A stretch of DNA of 63,775 nt, the filler included, from Licmophora abbreviata (taxonomy: Eukaryota): NCBI GenBank assembly GCA_900291995.1. It is 15 parts of 15 records of this genome, joined end to end, with 100 filler letters (N's around TTAATTAATTAA, not from the genome) between each part and the next. Parts side by side here need not be neighbours in the genome. Positions count along the whole stretch, not along the records: positions 22,976 to 29,544 come from OLMU01004364.1; 14 more parts are not named here. The stretch is one strand, 5' to 3'. The translations under genes and the position numbers were made by a program. The notes under the pieces were generated by a model. That model saw only the letters and a list, made by a program, of their open reading frames with translations, was not told the origin of the DNA and did not search any database. Every line of letters starts with the position of its first letter. Position 1 is the first letter of the stretch. Positions 22,976 through 47,232 of this stretch are shown in pieces.

Positions 22976-24584
22976 ATCCCGTCTCTATCGAACGAGGATC
23001 CCTCCTCTCGCTTGTCATCGGTCGCCGTAGAGGACATTGCTACTGGCACGACGACGAAAGATTCAAACAACAACAACAAACGCTACCGTTTCCTACTACA
23101 GAACGTGACTCTCCCAGAACGGTTTCGCTTTCTGCCCGACATTCTGCTCGACTACCAGTCGTCCTCGACTGGAAGACTCTTGGACAGCGACGTGGTCATG
23201 CTCCGACACTGTCACTTGGACAGCCATACGTTTGACTGGGATCTATACATCAAATGGGCGACCCACGTGCTAGATCAGCTTTTACCGGGCATTCAAGGCA
23301 ATCGTCAATACCAATCATTCTTCACAGCACAAGACCACCAGTACATGGAGGAAGAGTTTATACTGGAGCTACTAGAAATCTTTGCGACGCAACAAGGACA
23401 TTGTCAATTTGATGATCCAGACTTGTTTCCTGGGAGCCCACCTATCACTACCGGGAAAGAGGCTGAATGGAAGAAATCAGGAGAAACTTTGAGAGCTGTC
23501 CATACCTCAGGGAAGAAGGCACCCCCTGATGAGGCACGCCTTACGATTGTGATTGTTGCGTTTCAAGATGCGGAGCACCTTGCGCGGATCGTTCGCGCTT
23601 TGCATCGGCCACAGCACGTCTTCATTATTCATTTGGAACGTCGGGCGCCTCTGGCATATGTGACGCAAGTGCAAGATATTGCGTCACGGTACGGAAATGT
23701 AGTCGTGGTACAGTTTGGGACAGTCACGTATCGTACGGACTCTGTGTCGATGATTAATCTACAACTGATCAAATGGCTCGTAGTGGACATGAAATTGCAG
23801 TACGACTACCATGTTTTGATAGGCGGTGCTGTGTACCCACTCTACGGGGCTCAAGAGTTGGCTCGACACTTGAACGAGGCGAAAACAGAAGGACAACAGG
23901 CATGTGTGGCTCGGAGAACTGACAGGCGGTCGCAATGGCGAAACTATTCGGTCGGGGCAGTATGACTACTTGATACGGATGCGATTCAGCTACACGCGTG
24001 GGATACTTCCGGAGACGAAACTAGCTTTCCGTATCAAGCAAAAGCTGTTGACACCCTATGAGAACGAACAAAGTGTCGTTCAAATACCTCCAATCATTCA
24101 GGAGCACATGAGTTTCAAGACGAATTCCGGCAACCAAGCCGTCTACTCCTACGAAACGATGCACAAGTTACTGCATACGCCAGACGCAATGCGGGTTTTT
24201 GCAATGGCCAAGTACGGCTGTTGTTGCTGTCTAGAAGAGCGAACATGGATTGCAGCCATGGGTATGATGGGGCTACGGTCGGAATCGTTGAAGCACGGAT
24301 CCATGTGGCAAGTCTGGGGCGGCCAGGAGGAGTGCGGATCGAGTATGAACAATGCCGTCCTGTCAAGCAATGAACGTTTTTGCTATCGATTGGAAGACAT
24401 GACGGAAGGTGTCAAGCGACCACAAACCCAAGCCTGGTACATCAGGGGAGAACAAATTCTGGGTATTTTGAAAGATGCCAAGGAACGTGGGTTTCTCTTT
24501 GCACGTAAGTTTCATTCGTCTGATTCCTCATCCATGGAGCTGATGGAGGCGATACGACAACAACTTCATACCGTACATGAATAA
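22976..24584 (+). CDS. Core-2/I-branching (GT14-like) glycosyltransferase, 5'-partial, frameshift at A4 run 23882-23885
   Basis: RALHRPQHVFIIHLE, YDYHVLIGGAVYPL and terminal FLFARKF motifs; removing one A joins the two ORFs (AKQKDNRHVWLGE). Confidence 0.75.
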
Positions 24585-24704
24585 GTATAGTTTGTTGTTG
24601 AGTCCAAAATGGACGATAACAGAGTGTACGAACTGTTCCGACTTCCGTTTACTTAAACTATTTTAGCTAGTCTACATATTGCTTGTTTCGCTGGCACCTT
24701 CAAC

Positions 24705-25754
24705 TTACCACTGGTTCGGATTGACACGTACTGTCATGTCGCCTTCCTGCATTCCGTACCCTACAATGGCCTTACATGCAAGTCGCCATCGCGGGGAATC
24801 CTCCATTATTTGCTTTTCGGCAGGTCGTTGCGGATTCAACAAATCGCCTCCCTTCAATACGCTTACCGAGCAGGTTCGACACAACCCGTTGGCGCCGCAG
24901 TTCCCACCGTTCTTGGTGTCGAAGCGCTGTGCTAGAGGATCGTTCAGCTTCACACCTCGTAGCAACATCCCAAAGCGTAAATTCTCGCCCGCAAATAGTT
25001 CGATACTTGCATCTGGTTCGTTCATTGCTGGTGGGTACTGCAGGTTGACCCGTACCTTTGGTTTGCGTCGAATACGCTTGACTTTCAGAACGTACATGTC
25101 GTCAAATTTGGCAGGGTTGGGCTTGGGCAGCTGCTGGAGAGCCTTGACTGTACTATCGTAGGAAAGACATTCTGTCTGAGCAGTAAACTCTTCTTCCGTT
25201 TCGGACAGGCCAGTACCTGCTACGCCTGCTATCCCACGCCGCCGGCGCACAATCGATACCCGGGACAGCGAGTCGCCTGGAAAAAAACTCGTTTCTGTTG
25301 GATTCTCCAATAGCACTTGACTGGAACCACCTTCTACCAGCCCTGTAATCACAGTGATGCCCAATCCATCATCGCGACCACCAGCGAGCTCCACTAGCTG
25401 AATGCCCAATCCAGGAGCGTCGGGCAAACGAGGAAACGAGACGGTAATGGTATCCACAAACAGCTTCTGGTCGGTCTTGCATCCTAGTCTTAGCTTAGTT
25501 TCAGTCTCTGCTACTGCCTGGACAAAATTGGCAGTCCATTCTCGTCCAATCTCTTCAAGAGACTCGAGATTGTACTGGTTCATGTTTACCGAGGCAGGAC
25601 CAGCGCCTTGTAAGATCTGCGTCCCTACATTCTTCGTCGTCTCACCGTACGGAAGAGACATGCCAGCACATCGCCAAGCAACACAGCTCAACAGGAGGGC
25701 GGTGAGCAGAGCTAGGCCCATAGTCATGCGGTACCAGCACCGTGAAGTTACCAT
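24705..25754 (-). CDS. Probable plastid protein: PDZ-like region + C-terminal 2Fe-2S ferredoxin domain
   Basis: Signal peptide (MTMGLALL...), GLGIQLVEL PDZ-like loop, Cys pattern NCGANGLCRTC...RLAC. Start is either 25754 or 25727. Confidence 0.8.
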   Translation of the reverse strand: MVTSRCWYRMTMGLALLTALLLSCVAWRCAGMSLPYGETTKNVGTQILQGAGPASVNMNQYNLESLEEIGREWTANFVQAVAETETKLRLGCKTDQKLFVDTITVSFPRLPDAPGLGIQLVELAGGRDDGLGITVITGLVEGGSSQVLLENPTETSFFPGDSLSRVSIVRRRRGIAGVAGTGLSETEEEFTAQTECLSYDSTVKALQQLPKPNPAKFDDMYVLKVKRIRRKPKVRVNLQYPPAMNEPDASIELFAGENLRFGMLLRGVKLNDPLAQRFDTKNGGNCGANGLCRTCSVSVLKGGDLLNPQRPAEKQIMEDSPRWRLACKAIVGYGMQEGDMTVRVNPNQW

Positions 25755-26015
25755 GGTCGTTCTGCCGAGGGTAAATTTCTCACTCGAGTTGACCGTGTCT
25801 TTCGTCGCGGGAACTTCAACTCGACCAAAAATTGCGGGAGAGCCTGTCCGTCGACTCGAGGGGCGGCGGACGACGAGAGTTGCTAGACACGACAGAGGCA
25901 AGTTAAGTTACCTGGTACACAACACATCCAAACTAATTGTATCGCGCTCCCTTCAAAAAGCGCATGCAATTGCTTCATATAAAAAGTATCTAAATCGGTG
26001 CCCCCAATCATGGAT

Positions 26016-29000
26016 CTAAGCTTGGGACTTCGCCCAGTGCGGAATAGCAACGCGTGGTTCTACATCAGCCAAGAAGTTGACGACGCGCCCCGTTCCTCTT
26101 GGCTGTTCGTCCACAAGCGCAGTCGTTAATGCACTCTGGGGGAACTCGGACTTAAAGACACGAACAAAATATTTTGACGCTTCCCTGAGACTCTCATGAG
26201 TGAACCAGTTCAGGTCAATGTGATTGCGACCGTCCCACAGGGCAACGAGGTTTCCTCCAGACCAGTTTGCGACGATGACGCATCCCGCACCAATACCCGT
26301 GCTGACGTCCAACTCGAAGTCTTGCATGTCATCTGAATTTCTTAGGGCAGCTGCCGTTCTTGATAGAGCACTCTTCATGGCATTCTCAATAAGTTGTGGT
26401 GAAAGCTTCAACGACGCGCTCTCAAGTTGTGACAAGCACTGAAACGCTAGAGGTTTCTGAGAGAGCCATTGTTCCAGTGGCGGTTTCTGTTCGTAGTCGT
26501 GCGGCAAAAAGTAATGTGGCCATTTCCAGCCCGGTTCTTCTACATACCACTGCCAGGGAAACTGCCCGCCTTGGATCATCTGGACAGTAGACTCTAGGCC
26601 AGTCTTCTTTTCGATGCTCGAGACAACGTCAACCAACCGACGAACAAACCTGTCATCGATCGATGTAGTAAGTCCAACCTCCACAGTGCTCTCGGTATTG
26701 TTGAAAAGGATCTCTGCCCTGAAGTTTGGATCAAAATAGTTGATCTCAGTTCGGAATCGTTCCATAAAGTTCCGGCGCCATGACTCGCTTTCGTCAAACA
26801 TTACTGACAGCGCAAGCATGTCGTCGTCCAAAATAGTCTCCTTTTCTGCGTTTAGTATGTCATACACAACTCGCGCGAGAGTAAAAGTTGCACCGGGGTC
26901 GACAATAACTGCGCGAATCTTCTTGTCTTCTGATAAGGATTCGAGCAAGACTGTGGAAAGATCTGTTCCGCAAGACACCATGTTCTCGATGGCGCCCTGC
27001 TCGTATTCGTTGACCTCATCCATACCAGGACACGGCCGCAACGGTACGACCTGGGCAACAGTGTACATCGTCTCAAGTGTCCCGAGGCTAGCACAGCTCG
27101 ACTCATTCTCTCCACACAGAACAACCACTACATTATTGTCAATATCGCCAACCAGCCCTCCCAAGATTTCTTCAAGAAAAATCTCACTAACACTCTTCGC
27201 CATCACCATCTCTCGAGGCGGTTGTGGAGCTTTCGTACAAGGATCGATTGCGTGTGGGCCGCGTTTCTTTTCGTCCTCCTTCCATGTTTTGACGCCAAAC
27301 ATGCCACCTGCAACGATTCGATAGGAGGAAGTTGACTTTCCACCTCGGCCCTTCAATGCCTTGACAATGGCCTTTTTGGCGGCTTCCTGCCTGTCGAAGG
27401 AGCTCCAAAGATGAATGTCGACTGCGGCATACTTTTCATCGGGGAAGGTACGCGCCACCACGTATCCCTCTTCCAGAATGAGGGTTACGGCTGGCTTGTC
27501 GCTGGAGGCCGATTGAACACGCGATACTGGGTGAAAGCCTTGTTTGTTCAAAGACTTTTCCAGTACGTCAAGAATTGTCTGGGGGTCTCTGAGATTGCTA
27601 CGGGCGTCCTCGACCTCGACAACCATAAGAATGCCTGGGCTTCTGGTCTGCTCGATGGGCTCAGGATCGGATTGACCCTCCGCTTTGCATAGAATATCCG
27701 CGGTCTTGTTGTGGCGATAGTCATGATAGTATTCATACTTGTCTACCTCTGATGGAGGTTTGACAAAGAGACAATCTCGTTTGTGATCTCTCATTTTATC
27801 ATTCAGAAAGTTGACGCGGTTACTTCCAAGAACCAAACACTGGGAACAAACGACAGGCACATCAGGAAAGTCCACCTGAAGGCTACGGGAGAAGGCACAA
27901 AGTTTTGACAATGTGAGAAGCGTAGTATCATTCACTGTTTATTGCATGATACCATATAAAGCACGTACCTGTATCGAAACATGGAGCTGAGCTTATCCAT
28001 GTAAAGCTCGTTCTTTACAAATATGCCTTCGGGTTTGAGTAGAAGTGTCAGCGCCTGGAGAATGTCCAACTCGTCCGTCACGCTGAACGATGCGACAGTC
28101 TCCGACAGATCCACGAGAACCATGTCAAACGAGCCAAAATAATCTGCAGGGAGCATCAGGAGACTCTTTGCAGCATCCCCGTACCACCACTGCACCTTTT
28201 CGTTGTCCCAATGCGGCTGCGCGCCCATGTGTTTGAAAGCGTATCGAGTGATGAACTGATCCAATTCCAAACCAACGACAAACTCGATCGATCGGTACTT
28301 GAGGATCTCATGAAGAAGCATAGAGTCGCCTCCACCAACAAACAATACACGTTTGACGTCTTTGATGAATCGAGCCGTGTTGTGGACGACCATTTCGTGA
28401 TACTGAGGACGGTAGCTGCCGCAGATTTGGATGATTCCGTTGATAGAGAAACAGACATTATCGTTTGTGGGATTCCGAGCAAAGTGTATATCCTGATAGT
28501 GAGACTGAATAGAGTCCAACTCTTCCATGTCGTCAAACACCATATCACTGTATTGGTCACACGTGTACGCGTCGAGGTGATGATAGTCGATTGGGTCTTC
28601 TCTCTCACCCAGATCGTCGTACGGTCTCAACAAGGAACACGATGCGCCGCCCGAGCGGCACTCTAGGTAATGCTGTGCCAGTTCGCAAGTTTCATCGATG
28701 CCGATATCCTCAATTGTACAGACAAACTTTAGCGCTTCCACAATGGCGGTGATGAGGGCGTCTTTGTATCGCTGAATCACACTTAGCTCATGTTCGGGCA
28801 CTTTGTTTCCTGCGACTTCACGAAAATCATCCAATCGATGAAGCTGAATGAGAAGGTACCAAATGGCATCGTTGTCGGGGTATTCGTCCGCAAGCCAATC
28901 CACTTGTAGAAGTCCAGATTTCTCATCTTCGTCAAGTTCAAAACCAATATCCTCGTTCCAAAAGAACCACCGCTGAGGGTAGTTTTCGACAAATCCATAG

Positions 29001-29544
29001 TCACGAAGAATCTCAGGTGTACCGTATCCATAATCACGGGCTCCACAATCCTCGCAGAAGTTGTAGGTGGTGTAAATTTCATCTCCTGCTTTGATATCCC
29101 GAGACGCGTACACGGGAATACTGGACCGACTGAGATCGTGAACACTTCCACGAGTTTCGGTGTTGAGCCGTGGGCCGTTGCGATGGCTCATCATATCGTA
29201 TACTGGAATCATGAGTTCATCCCAACCGCGTTGAAGTAGATACAAGGCAGCATTGACACTTGCTGTATCACGGCTACCCTGACAGTCTACATACCACTGC
29301 GGATTGATATACCCAGTGGGATTCTCAGGAGGAAGATCGTCCGTGTAGTCGGCGTCAGTTTGTGAAAGCAGTCCGTGCAGTAGCGACCTTCCTTCCAAGG
29401 ACCATGCGCTCGGCAGCTCACCAGGATCCTGAGAAAGAAGATAATTGGTATAAGGCGCAAATTCTGACTGGTCGCCAAGCTTCCATTCTTCGGCCAATTT
29501 GATAGCCGTGGGGCAGTAGATTGCACCGTATTCAGTTTCAGGAT
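26016..29544 (-). CDS. SET domain + spermidine/spermine synthase-like aminopropyltransferase + two AdoMetDC-like domains (5'-partial)
   Basis: SET: PVYDMMSHRNG...ASRDIKAGDEIYTTY. APT: RVLFVGGGD, GLELDQ, FDMVLVDLSE. Intron 27883-27968. AdoMetDC-like: LILEEGYVVARTFPDEKYAAVDIH and NLVALWDGRNHIDLN. Confidence 0.85.
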
Positions 29545-29644
29545 NNNNNNNNNNNNNNNNNNNNNNNNNNNNNNNNNNNNNNNNNNNNTTAATTAATTAA
29601 NNNNNNNNNNNNNNNNNNNNNNNNNNNNNNNNNNNNNNNNNNNN
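29545..29644. other. Artificial gap spacer
   Basis: N44-TTAATTAATTAA-N44. Confidence 0.98.
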
Positions 29645-45187: not shown

Positions 45188-47232
45188 ATGATGTCCGGGG
45201 ATAAATATGACCGCTTTGAGGCGTGGCTCCGAGAAAATGGTGCTCAATTCGACATGGTAAGTGGTTCGACTGCTTGAATTCTGAGTGTCAGGCTTCAATT
45301 TTAGGGGGGCATGAACATTGCGGATGGGACAATACACGTGTCTGGGGAAGACTCCTTGCCAATTGAATTGAAACTAAGAAATATTTATCCATGCAGTCGC
45401 TCGAGCTGTTTTCCATGCGTCACGAAATTCCCCGCACTCACTCGCTTGTCCGTCCCATTCGCACAACAGCTCGACCTCCGAGAATACGACAGTCGCGGCA
45501 AGGAAGAAGAAGACAGCGAAGAAAAGAAAGAGCCGCAGACTTGTATGGAAGACGAGTCGGAAATGCGCAGTGTTCATGCCAAAACTCACATTCCTCCCAA
45601 TACTACTTGCATGACGATTCCACGAAAGTGCTTGATTACGGTCGAAATGGGTCAAGCCACGCCCATCGGCCAGCAGATTCTGCACAGTGACCTCGACTTG
45701 GATGCCCCGAAACACATTTTTCTAATGATTTACTTGTTATGGGATCGAAAGGTTCACGGCAGCAGCAGTTTTTATGCGCCCTATTACGATGTTCTCCCGA
45801 ACACGCTGTCTAACATGCCCGTATTCTGGTCAAAGCAAGAACTGAGGTATCTGGAAGGGTCTTACTTGGTGGCACAGATTTATGATCGACGATTGGCCAT
45901 CCAGGAAGACTATGAAAGCATTTGTACGGTCGCCCCTGAACTAGCGGAATTGTGTACTCTCCAGGAATTTCAATGGGCTCGCATGTGCGTGTGCAGTCGG
46001 AACTTTGGGCTGCAAATGGACGGGCATCGCACCAGCGCTCTCGTGCCGCATGCAGATATGCTCAATCATTTTCGTCCTCGAGAAACAAAATGGACGTTTG
46101 ATGACGAAAAGCAGGCATTCACGATTACAAGGTGTGTGTGTGTGTGTACCATGTGCCCTGGCTCGAATCACTTGGTATGGTGTAAGAGACCTGTCTCACC
46201 ATCTGATTGCTTGGTTCGTGTCTTGGTTTCAGTTTACAATCGATTCCGGCAGGAGCGCAGGTATACGACTCCTACGGGCAAAAGTGCAATCATCGGTTTC
46301 TGCTTAATTATGGCTTTGCCGTAGAAGACAATCGCGNNNNNNNNNNNNNNNNNNNNNNNNNNNNNNNNNNNNNNNNNNNNTTAATTAATTAANNNNNNNN
46401 NNNNNNNNNNNNNNNNNNNNNNNNNNNNNNNNNNNNCGTGTCTCGACATGACCCCGTCTACGAACGCAAGATGGAATTTTGGACACGAGGCGAACCACGT
46501 CATGAGCACGATGATGCGGCCGCATCCAAGCGAGTGCGAGTATGCGTTTCCAACAATGAAAATACGCGGCTGCTGTTTAGTTTGCTGCGGGCGCTTGTTT
46601 GCAACGAGCAAGAGTTGAAGGCGACAATCACGAGTTTGGCCCATGACGGAGCGGCCGTAACGAGGGCCTTGTTTGGAATGGCGGATTCGCGTGCCATCGC
46701 AGCGGCTGCCACGTCGCCGTTCTACAGGTCGTGTCGAGACATTCGTCACCCGATCAGTCTTCGGAACGAACGTGCCGCCGTGAAACACCTTGCGGAAGCT
46801 ACGACTCGAGCGTTGAGCACGTATCCAACGACGCTGGCACAGGACGTAAACGACCTGCTTGATGAAGTGGCCTGTCCAAGATTTAGCAACAAGAGGCATG
46901 CGAAAATTCAGGTCCGGGGAGAAAAAGAAGTGTTGCATCACTTTATGACTTGGGCCCGAGCTGCCATGGACGTCTTGGATACTATCGATCGAGAGATTAG
47001 AGACGAACATGATGCTGTCGAGGTTCAACTGACACCAGGAGGCGGTTGTACCACGACAGAAGTCCGACCAAGCTTTGAGACGGTTATTCGGAGAATGGAA
47101 GAGGACGAAGGAACTGTTGCGGGTTTGCACCATACGATTGTTCGCTACTGTGCTGACGTCCTTGGCTCACTTCGGCGGGAGGAACTCAAGAATATTCGCC
47201 GTCAAAAGGCGCTCGCATCATCGTCAATGTAG
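45188..47232 (+). CDS. SET-domain methyltransferase (SETD3/Rubisco-LSMT-like), interrupted by gap
   Basis: Introns 45257-45469 and 46132-46232; WARMCVCSRNF, LVPHADMLNH and YDSYGQKCNHRFLLNYGF motifs; substrate-binding domain after the gap. Confidence 0.88.
46337..46436. other. Artificial gap spacer
   Basis: N44-TTAATTAATTAA-N44. Confidence 0.98.

Follow-up and report, generated by a model that had tools for sequence, protein, structure and literature searches.

Structure of the gene

The locus holds a single fusion gene, truncated at its 5′ end, on the minus strand of positions 26016-29544 of the window (the whole stretch of Licmophora abbreviata DNA analysed here, 63,775 nucleotides long and made up of 15 contigs separated by N44-TTAATTAATTAA-N44 spacers). 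It consists of two long open reading frames and one intron, and all of its features given below lie on the minus strand. The intron (27883..27968) is 86 nt long, 40% GC and of the GT..AG type, reading GTACGT..CCGTAG from 27968 down to 27883; the spliced coding sequence comprises 3441 nt, or 1146 codons and a TAG stop (26016..26018). Without splicing, the exon-1 frame hits a stop 14 codons past the donor. The splice junction falls within an ungapped alignment block in all five full-length homologues tested, the aminopropyltransferase (APT) fold spans the exon junction (by PDB sequence match and by structure comparison), and two tblastn HSPs cover both exons. A preliminary description of this DNA had proposed that one intron joins two frames into more than 1100 residues, and the codon count and the colinear junction bear it out. 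One RNA run (share 0.06) yielded three short contig pieces, none crossing the intron, and was uninformative on expression and splicing.

The contig that carries the gene (22976-29544) ends inside the SET domain, and the artificial spacer that follows (29545..29644, no strand) marks where the 5′ end is lost. The window copy therefore lacks the N-terminal part of its SET domain and any signal peptide; by comparison with relatives, an estimated ~85-90 N-terminal residues are absent from the gene product. A tblastn search with the N-termini of six relatives did not find the first exon elsewhere in the window. One weak match (45548-45646, E 0.001) was rejected: the ORF that it hits, also SET-like, is a separate one on another contig.

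Pfam and the structure model together give the domain order of the protein: SET, APT, a first pseudo-AdoMetDC fold (half A), a Rossmann domain and a second pseudo-AdoMetDC fold (half B). Residues are numbered by exon product (P0001 for exon 1, P0002 for exon 2). The domain list of the preliminary description is supported by Pfam for the APT and the first AdoMetDC-like fold and by structure comparison for SET and the second; the motifs that it named (GGGD, ELD, DLSE and LEEGY) are all present in the fusion protein.

The SET and aminopropyltransferase domains

The partial SET domain and its LSMT-type C-terminal lobe occupy 28691..29542 (P0001 residues 1-284; Pfam and VIA-align). In the truncated window protein the Pfam SET profile (PF00856) scores 19.9 bits against a cut-off of 22.4, and it reaches 32.3 and 34.5 bits in the full-length P0003 and P0015, the two SET-carrying relatives scanned. 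A phmmer search of the SET part against the PDB gave no match. Structure comparison with VIA-align places the region closest to SETD6 (3qxy_A: Z 13.0, rmsd 3.8, 234 aligned), SETD3 (6mbj_A, Z 12.6) and LSMT (1mlv_A, Z 12.0), with 234-244 residues across comparisons. His120 and Tyr160 are kept in the window protein and conserved in 53/58 and 43/58 family members; they are putatively the cofactor-site His and the C-terminal catalytic Tyr. The Pfam match stops at residue 161 (profile position 105). The SET domain claimed earlier is thereby upheld, and by its modelled fold it is of the protein-lysine SETD6/SETD3/LSMT class. A linker (28571..28690) joins it to the APT and is partly of low confidence in the model (pLDDT <50 at residues 306-319).

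The APT is split by the intron into an exon-1 part (27969..28570, P0001 residues 325-524 plus two bases of the split codon) and a C-terminal part in exon 2 (27657..27882, P0002 residues 1-75) that is colinear with homologues. Its relationship to spermidine synthases stands on several measures: Pfam Spermine_synth (PF01564) matches with E 1e-15 (58.2 bits against a gathering cut-off of 22.9), phmmer against the PDB gives 6.7e-13, and the fold aligns with 2pt9_C at Z 19.5 (rmsd 2.5, 189 aligned). The key residues are Q350, Y381-H382-E383, G403-G-G-D406, E426, D456, D478 and E481 (P0001 numbering), and several are conserved nearly throughout: GGGD, Asp478 and Glu426 in 58/58 family members each and YHE in 56-58/58. 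In spermidine synthase structures, the Asp of GGGD selects dcSAM over SAM and the first Asp of D-x-x-D/E is catalytic. With the dcSAM motif and the catalytic-position Asp both intact, the APT looks active and dcSAM-dependent.

The acceptor side is different. The second Asp of the spermidine-synthase motif DSSDP, which anchors the distal amine of putrescine, is replaced in the window protein (DLSET), and across the family this position is Glu in 45/58 and Asp in 9/58. Such a residue speaks against a plain spermidine synthase specific for putrescine; with Glu in place of Asp, the acceptor is not readable from sequence. The APT likewise falls far under every NCBIfam equivalog cut-off, the best SpeE score being 84.5 bits against 260.

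The C-terminal half

Half A (27297..27650, P0002 residues 78-195; Pfam, structure and residue alignment) is recognised by Pfam AdoMet_dc (PF02675) at 29.5 bits against a cut-off of 25. Searching the PDB with the whole exon-2 protein by phmmer returned nothing relevant, and the alignment to Thermotoga maritima AdoMetDC was reached by a family profile; in structure comparison half A matches 1tlu_A with Z 15.3 (rmsd 2.4, 110/117 aligned). In AdoMetDC, H68 is the processing His and C83 the proton-donor Cys, and the S63A variant is a non-processing mutant according to its PDB title. The diatom fold carries the motif E138-G139-Y140: S63 corresponds to Gly139 (codon at 27465-27467), H68 to Arg144, and the seven-residue loop bearing C83 is deleted. 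These are features of the family, with Gly at the pyruvoyl-Ser position in 57/58 members and Ser in none, and Arg at the H68 position in 46/58. Because of these three losses half A cannot form the pyruvoyl group, as had been suspected from its LEEGY motif, and judged by its residues it is a pseudoenzyme and no AdoMetDC.

Half B (26058..26474, P0002 residues 470-608) was undetected by Pfam. It was described beforehand as a second, more degenerate AdoMetDC-like fold, a view that the structure model and a weak profile match support: aligning the two halves with hhalign yields a weak in-register match (P 5e-4), and G531-A-G533 stands where the ES motif would be. Human AdoMetDC fits both halves together with Z 13-14 over 221-227 residues (model range 77-607), for example 1jl0_B with Z 14.0 (222 aligned, model 78-605) and 1msv with Z 13-13.9, whereas one half alone gives Z 8.2-8.7 over only 100-102 residues. 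The two AdoMetDC-like folds are thus predicted to pack as one class-2-like sandwich, the packing coming from one AlphaFold model with pTM 0.67. A separate complex prediction of half A (78-195) against half B (470-608) gave no verdict (score 0.00); no alignment was used and the partner's fold was uncertain. The preliminary description was right about two AdoMetDC-like folds, which were compared directly with AdoMetDC structures (1tlu_A and 1jl0_B), and less so in treating them as separate modules: halves predicted to share one sandwich are not two independent units.

Between the halves, a "linker domain" had been proposed. A domain does lie there, and its structure comparison replaces the linker label with a Rossmann fold of the class I methyltransferase/APT-like kind (26562..27209, P0002 residues 225-440). 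Its matches include 3gjy (Z 9.8, 178 aligned), COMT (9.6), PrmC (9.0) and spermidine synthases (8-9), the best scores being tied within 1 Z across methyltransferases and spermidine synthases. It has no GxGxG SAM motif I, and C256-G-E-N-E-S-S-C263 follows strand 1. Pfam reported no family in it, an ESM Atlas search with it gave no usable match, and hhalign against the family's own APT gave P 0.26. Asp328 is invariant and four Cys columns are conserved, out of seven in the family. The strongly conserved acidic and aromatic residues of the C-terminal half include E138, Y140, D155, H157, W159, R188, D328, D591, R595 and R599, and the window protein has all strongly conserved positions of this half but one (K177 vs G).

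A family of diatom fusion proteins

The window protein is colinear with P0003 and P0007 at 44-52% identity over residues 5-1143. Sixty-three full-length relatives of 1089-1643 aa were collected, and their precomputed Pfam annotations contain Spermine_synth in 63/63, SET in 39/63 and AdoMet_dc in 22/63. All 13 relatives with a named organism belong to diatom genera, from Corethron to raphid pennates (two were checked by taxonomy and the rest by genus name), and complete MMETSP transcripts carry the SET, APT and AdoMetDC domains on one mRNA. The gene is a 5′-truncated member of this diatom-specific SET/APT/dead-AdoMetDC fusion family. The C-terminal module is matched by 809 cluster representatives. 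Of six shorter database proteins inspected, five have their start within the APT or its tail; the remaining one starts shortly ahead of the first pseudo-AdoMetDC fold. They look like cut gene models, and a stand-alone form of the C-terminal module is unproven. N-termini are informative as well: a hydrophobic N-terminal stretch is present in 46/57 homologues, as against 81/1485 interior control windows. Among the relatives, ShK and Tudor domains each occur once, and the seven conserved Cys columns belong to the same secretory picture.

The family has been described before. As presented in papers that cite it, Michael (2011, FEBS Lett 585:2627) proposed AdoMetDC-APT(-methyltransferase) fusions in the same organisms, with the same three domain types and a role in long-chain polyamine (LCPA) or silaffin modification; those papers call the fusions potential LCPA synthases and N-methylases. 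Polyamines of this sort give diatom silica its form. The SET-APT-AdoMetDC fusion is accordingly not new, this copy brings no new architecture, and no feature was found that sets it apart from other members. The 2011 proposal reportedly includes a class of different configuration whose AdoMetDC is catalytically dead, one case having a Tudor domain, and the dead AdoMetDC and Tudor-bearing relative found here agree with it.

Comparison with known systems

Human spermine synthase (3c6k/3c6m) is the closest precedent for the C-terminal half, being its top Foldseek match (E 4e-8): it likewise fuses a dead class-1b-like AdoMetDC to an APT, and the APT domains match with Z 17. The dead domain of the human enzyme is described as essential via dimer formation (PMC12803844). 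Several things differ, however. The order is reversed, with the APT first in the diatom protein; there are two dead folds, predicted to pair within one chain and not between two; Rossmann and SET domains are added; and the human domain arrangement cannot be superposed on the diatom model (rmsd 14.9).

Among AdoMetDCs, the bacterial class 1b enzymes (T. maritima 1tlu/1vr7, PF02675) share the fold of half A, which lacks their S63, H68 and C83 loop. The two-half alpha-beta-beta-alpha sandwich of class 2 (human 1jl0/1msv) is also present in the diatom model, and the Trypanosoma brucei AdoMetDC/prozyme pair (5tvf) is comparable, 5tvf_E fitting both modelled halves with Z 12.1. Prozyme shows that an AdoMetDC paralogue can be dead and still have a function. 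Relative to class 2, identity is ~8%, the diatom protein has a 215-residue Rossmann insert, and neither half has a catalytic Ser. With SETD6, SETD3 and Rubisco LSMT, the diatom protein shares the SET core and helical C-lobe (Z 12-13), and its conserved His and Tyr are putative counterparts of their cofactor-site and catalytic residues; unlike those enzymes and the diatom-specific "BacSETs" (Nemoto 2020), its SET domain is fused to an APT and a pseudo-AdoMetDC module, and the window copy is missing the N-terminal part.

Possible functions

Domain order, folds, catalytic-residue state and family membership were computed in this analysis, and the explanation that we favour, with somewhat better than even confidence, is that the gene belongs to a diatom-specific fusion family whose APT and SET domains would modify amines that end up in biosilica, with the pseudo-AdoMetDC module as a platform. 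The protein would be routed into the secretory pathway, which also seems to be the case for most relatives. The APT would move aminopropyl groups from dcSAM, made elsewhere, onto these amines, the acceptors being lysine side chains of silaffins or cingulins and/or growing polyamine chains; dcSAM would have to get into the secretory lumen. The SET domain would N-methylate the same substrates with SAM. The C-terminal module, two pseudo-AdoMetDC halves with a degenerate Rossmann domain between them, would yield no dcSAM and by analogy with human spermine synthase probably serves the APT as a platform, either structural or ligand-binding. Both chemistries are seen on silaffins: PMC4557024 describes silaffin lysines that are dimethylated or bear methylated aminopropyl units. 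In Seminavis, expression of AMDC-APT and diatom SET genes is highest at cytokinesis, together with that of cell-wall genes (bioRxiv 10.1101/2020.11.23.393678).

The preliminary description pictured a free LCPA synthase, with iterative elongation by the APT, methylation of the nitrogens in the chain by SET, and the dead folds serving as putative scaffold, channel or ruler. We regard this as a lesser possibility, though a serious one. It draws on the same domain evidence as the favoured explanation (Pfam, APT conservation and fold), it is the published hypothesis for the family, and BurB (PMC12542666) is reported to be a SET-domain enzyme whose methylation substrate is a small molecule. The SET domain itself speaks against it: SETD6, SETD3 and LSMT, which it resembles down to the substrate-binding C-lobe, act on proteins. 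The Tudor domain in one relative also weighs against it, and the signal-peptide-like N-termini put relatives where silaffins mature. Taken together, these N-termini, a protein-lysine SET domain and Tudor or ShK domains in relatives put silaffin-lysine modification in the secretory pathway on at least an equal footing with free LCPA synthesis. The remark that biochemical proof is missing also holds, in that no assay or knockout of the family was found in the literature searched (subscription journals were mostly outside its coverage), and a December 2025 paper still lists diatom APT fusions as needing study.

A more specific version of LCPA synthesis, which we consider unlikely, makes the C-terminal 540 residues a fossil second AdoMetDC-APT unit rebuilt as a processivity or length-setting module. 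In the model, the dead folds may close in cis to mimic a class-2 enzyme, with the cofactor-less Rossmann domain hanging from the sandwich. The strongly conserved residues listed above may then form a putative polyamine or dcSAM/MTA site, and, much as prozyme controls AdoMetDC in trypanosomes, this site may bind the chain while it grows or act as a gate for the adjacent APT.

It is improbable, in our judgement, that the family has no silica-specific role and is a general secretory protein-lysine methyltransferase or polyamine enzyme (for example of norspermidine or thermospermine type) that expanded in diatoms. The atypical acceptor site would fit such an enzyme, and the silica link consists of co-expression and taxon restriction only. 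Yet the family is large and every organism-named relative is a diatom, across the whole range from Corethron to raphid pennates; both encoded chemistries are exactly those on silaffin lysines and LCPAs, and related gene families peak at cell-wall synthesis. Least credible by a wide measure is a pair of genes, one for SET-APT that stops within the "intron" and a second, downstream, for the pseudo-AdoMetDC part: the early stop in the intron and the many ~600-aa AdoMet_dc-only proteins in databases would suit it, but the spliced product is gap-free at the junction against all five homologues, the APT fold would be severed at about two-thirds of its length, complete transcripts of relatives hold all domains, and the shorter proteins mostly begin within the APT or its tail.

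The synthesis of LCPAs and of polyamine-modified silaffin lysines in diatoms is still a puzzle, for which this fusion family offers the leading candidate. The picture is now sharper: the APT, which looks active, has an acceptor site that departs from that of spermidine synthases, SET falls into a protein-lysine type and the relatives look secreted. The dead C-terminal half, in turn, is a module of three domains, conserved and with a predicted class-2-like sandwich, and not a loose pair of relics.

Gene structure and family

The fusion gene (26016-29544) lies on the minus strand of a single contig (22976-29544), as an upstream long open frame (27932-29596, minus) and a downstream one (26016-27938, minus) joined through an 86 nt intron running from 27968 down to 27883 (GTACGT..CCGTAG, 40% GC). 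Without splicing, the upstream frame reaches a stop 14 codons beyond the donor; after splicing, the CDS is 3441 nt, or 1146 residues plus a TAG at 26016-26018. The preliminary description had proposed this intron and a product of more than 1100 residues, and both hold: the junction falls within an ungapped alignment block in 5/5 full-length homologues tested, and a homologue aligned to the window by tblastn gave a single HSP per exon with no other breaks. The aminopropyltransferase (APT) fold carries on through about 75 residues at the start of exon 2, and therefore the intron splits one domain rather than separating two genes. The 5′ end is lost at the contig boundary (29544), with about 85-90 residues absent as judged from relatives. 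The exons were analysed apart, as P0001 (exon 1, 524 aa) and P0002 (exon 2, 621 aa). Because the window strings together 15 contigs with N44-TTAATTAATTAA-N44 spacers between them (14 sites within 7601-62609, e.g. 29545-29644), gene neighbourhood across a spacer is meaningless. On the same contig, the C-terminus of an adjoining 400-codon frame (24705-25907, minus) weakly matches a 2Fe-2S ferredoxin-type domain (Fer2, 19.3 bits, cut-off 21). A 339-codon frame on a different contig (45305-46324, plus) resembles SETD3/6-type SET proteins and a family member's N-terminal SET part (tblastn E 0.001), with no Pfam match at E 0.01; it was rejected as the missing first exon, being a separate gene on another contig.

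Longer relatives of P0002 number 63 (1089-1643 aa, the best 44% identical to P0002), and precomputed Pfam annotation gives Spermine_synth in 63/63, SET in 39/63 and AdoMet_dc in 22/63. All 13 organism-named relatives are diatoms (genera Thalassionema, Corethron, Ditylum, Fistulifera, Seminavis, Epithemia, Mayamaea and Cylindrotheca): the taxonomy confirmed this for two of the rows, and the remaining names are those of diatom genera. MMETSP transcripts of relatives labelled complete carry all three domains, in agreement with the earlier claim of a SET-APT-AdoMetDC (S-adenosylmethionine decarboxylase) fusion on one polypeptide. A profile of the C-terminal module matched 809 cluster representatives at E <= 1e-3 and 459 at 1e-30. 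Many database proteins are about 600 aa long with AdoMet_dc only; of six inspected (P0066, P0091, P0096, P0124, P0145, P0150), five have their start within APT or its tail, and one just ahead of the first AdoMetDC-like fold. These database proteins resemble gene models broken at an intron placed as in the window. A strongly hydrophobic stretch occurs within the first 45 residues of 46/57 homologues, against 81/1485 interior control windows. Some relatives depart from the common layout: P0090 has a ShK domain (residues 89-124) instead of SET, P0052 has gained a Tudor domain (residues 1320-1371) close to its C-terminus, and in P0124 and P0150 the second AdoMetDC-like fold is separated from the Rossmann domain by acidic or DUF4537-like inserts.

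Catalytic domains

Conservation was counted over an alignment of 57/63 homologues (P0004, P0006, P0016 and P0017 omitted as near-duplicates, P0052 and P0057 because their coverage was partial). The spermidine-synthase-like APT with a GGGD motif is evident by Pfam (Spermine_synth, E 1e-15) and by structure, where P0001 residues 325-524 match spermidine synthase 2pt9_C (Z 19.5, rmsd 2.5, 189 aligned). Its dcSAM and catalytic residues are intact: H382, E383, GGGD406, E426 and D478 are kept in 58/58 sequences, Y381 and D456 in 56/58 and Q350 in 54/58. The second Asp of the spermidine synthase DSSDP motif is Glu in the window protein (family: E 45/58, D 9/58), and Leu replaces the Ser before it in 58/58, so that the acceptor site differs from that of a putrescine-specific enzyme.

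The SET domain scores 19.9 bits in the 5′-cut window protein, under the Pfam cut-off of 22.4, and 32.3 and 34.5 bits in the two SET-bearing full-length relatives scanned. In an AlphaFold2 model of P0001 (57 homologues used, mean pLDDT 85.2), the region compared (residues 1-275/284) matches SETD6 (3qxy_A, Z 13.0, rmsd 3.8, 234 aligned), SETD3 (6mbj_A, Z 12.6, 244 aligned) and pea Rubisco LSMT (1mlv_A, Z 12.0, 238 aligned), which upholds the SET assignment. The modelled fold is that of the SET class whose members have a substrate-binding C-lobe and act on proteins. His120 is retained in 53/58 sequences and Tyr160 in 43/58.

A non-catalytic C-terminal module

The two AdoMetDC-like folds of the preliminary description were checked by Pfam and in a P0002 model (mean pLDDT 86.0, pTM 0.67). 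The first, half A, passes the Pfam cut-off (AdoMet_dc, 29.5 bits against 25, residues 88-180), and residues 80-192 superpose on T. maritima AdoMetDC (Z 15.3, rmsd 2.4, 110/117 residues). Half B by itself matched no structure; matches came with both halves together: human AdoMetDC 1jl0_B (Z 14.0, rmsd 3.8, 222 aligned, model 78-605), 1msv_B (Z 13.9, 227 aligned), 1msv_A (Z 13.0, in a Foldseek-independent search) and T. brucei AdoMetDC/prozyme 5tvf_E (Z 12.1). Because human AdoMetDC superposes on both halves and single-half matches score only Z 8.2-8.7 (100-102 residues), half B (about 470-608) is real in the model, where it is predicted to pack on half A as in class-2 AdoMetDC. Compared profile against profile, the halves align weakly and in register (P 5e-4, probability 31%); P was 0.087-0.31 for control pairs.

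The domain between them had been called a linker. Residues 225-440 are modelled as a Rossmann fold, best matched by 3gjy (probable spermidine synthase, Z 9.8) and tied within 1 Z with COMT (9.6), PrmC (9.0) and bona fide spermidine synthases (8-9). It lacks a GxGxG motif, and its sequence is not significantly similar to that of the APT in the family (P 0.26). Seven P0002 Cys columns (12, 65, 215, 256, 263, 284 and 304; window 26970-27848) are kept in 53-57/58, four of them within the Rossmann domain at the usual place of the SAM site; the cysteines might form disulfides in a lumenal protein or bind a metal.

Self-cleavage had been said to look impossible for want of the pyruvoyl-forming Ser, and that Ser is indeed gone. 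In the family profile, 'L-k-E-G-Y-v-v-a-R-t' aligns on 'I-S-E-S-H-L-T-I-H-T' of the T. maritima proenzyme, placing Gly139 of P0002 at S63 (the processing residue, since a PDB title names S63A a non-processing mutant) and Arg144 at H68; the C83-bearing loop is missing from the family. Of 58 sequences, 57 carry Gly at the Ser position and one carries Cys; the equivalent residue in half B is Gly533. All residues conserved in at least 50/58 are retained in the window protein's C-terminal half, K177 excepted.

Proposed function and significance

A single polypeptide combines a SET domain of the protein-lysine type with an APT that keeps its dcSAM and catalytic residues and with a conserved, non-catalytic module of two AdoMetDC folds and one Rossmann fold. 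The enzyme would sit in the secretory pathway, adding aminopropyl groups from dcSAM supplied by another enzyme and methyl groups from SAM, on amines that would end up in biosilica. A 2011 abstract reportedly proposed silaffin modification for a class that has another domain order and a catalytically dead AdoMetDC, in one case together with a Tudor domain. The preliminary description favoured elongation and methylation of long-chain polyamines (LCPAs) around dead AdoMetDC folds. That interpretation is partly supported. Free LCPAs are possible targets, and bacterial-type AdoMetDC-APT fusions of diatoms, some also with a histone-type N-methyltransferase domain, have been proposed to make and methylate them (Michael, 2011). 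Protein-bound lysines are favoured by the class of the SET domain, the relative with a Tudor domain and N-termini that resemble signal peptides. Human spermine synthase offers the best parallel for the dead module: it needs its own dead AdoMetDC-like domain, which acts through dimer formation (PMC12803844). In the model of the fusion the partner fold would be provided in cis.

Diatom-specific SET methyltransferases have been described (Nemoto et al., 2020), and the AMDC-APT and SET genes of Seminavis reach their peak together with cell-wall genes (bioRxiv 10.1101/2020.11.23.393678). A December 2025 paper, in which a single Nitzschia species is counted as having 32 APT fusion proteins, still lists diatom APT fusions as needing study. 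A literature search for an assay or knockout of the fusion family found none; since diatom fusions had already been proposed, the gene belongs to a known, uncharacterised kind. The Rossmann insert, second AdoMetDC fold and predicted class-2-like packing may or may not already be in print. The family bears on a long-standing question, which the window copy makes no more testable than before.
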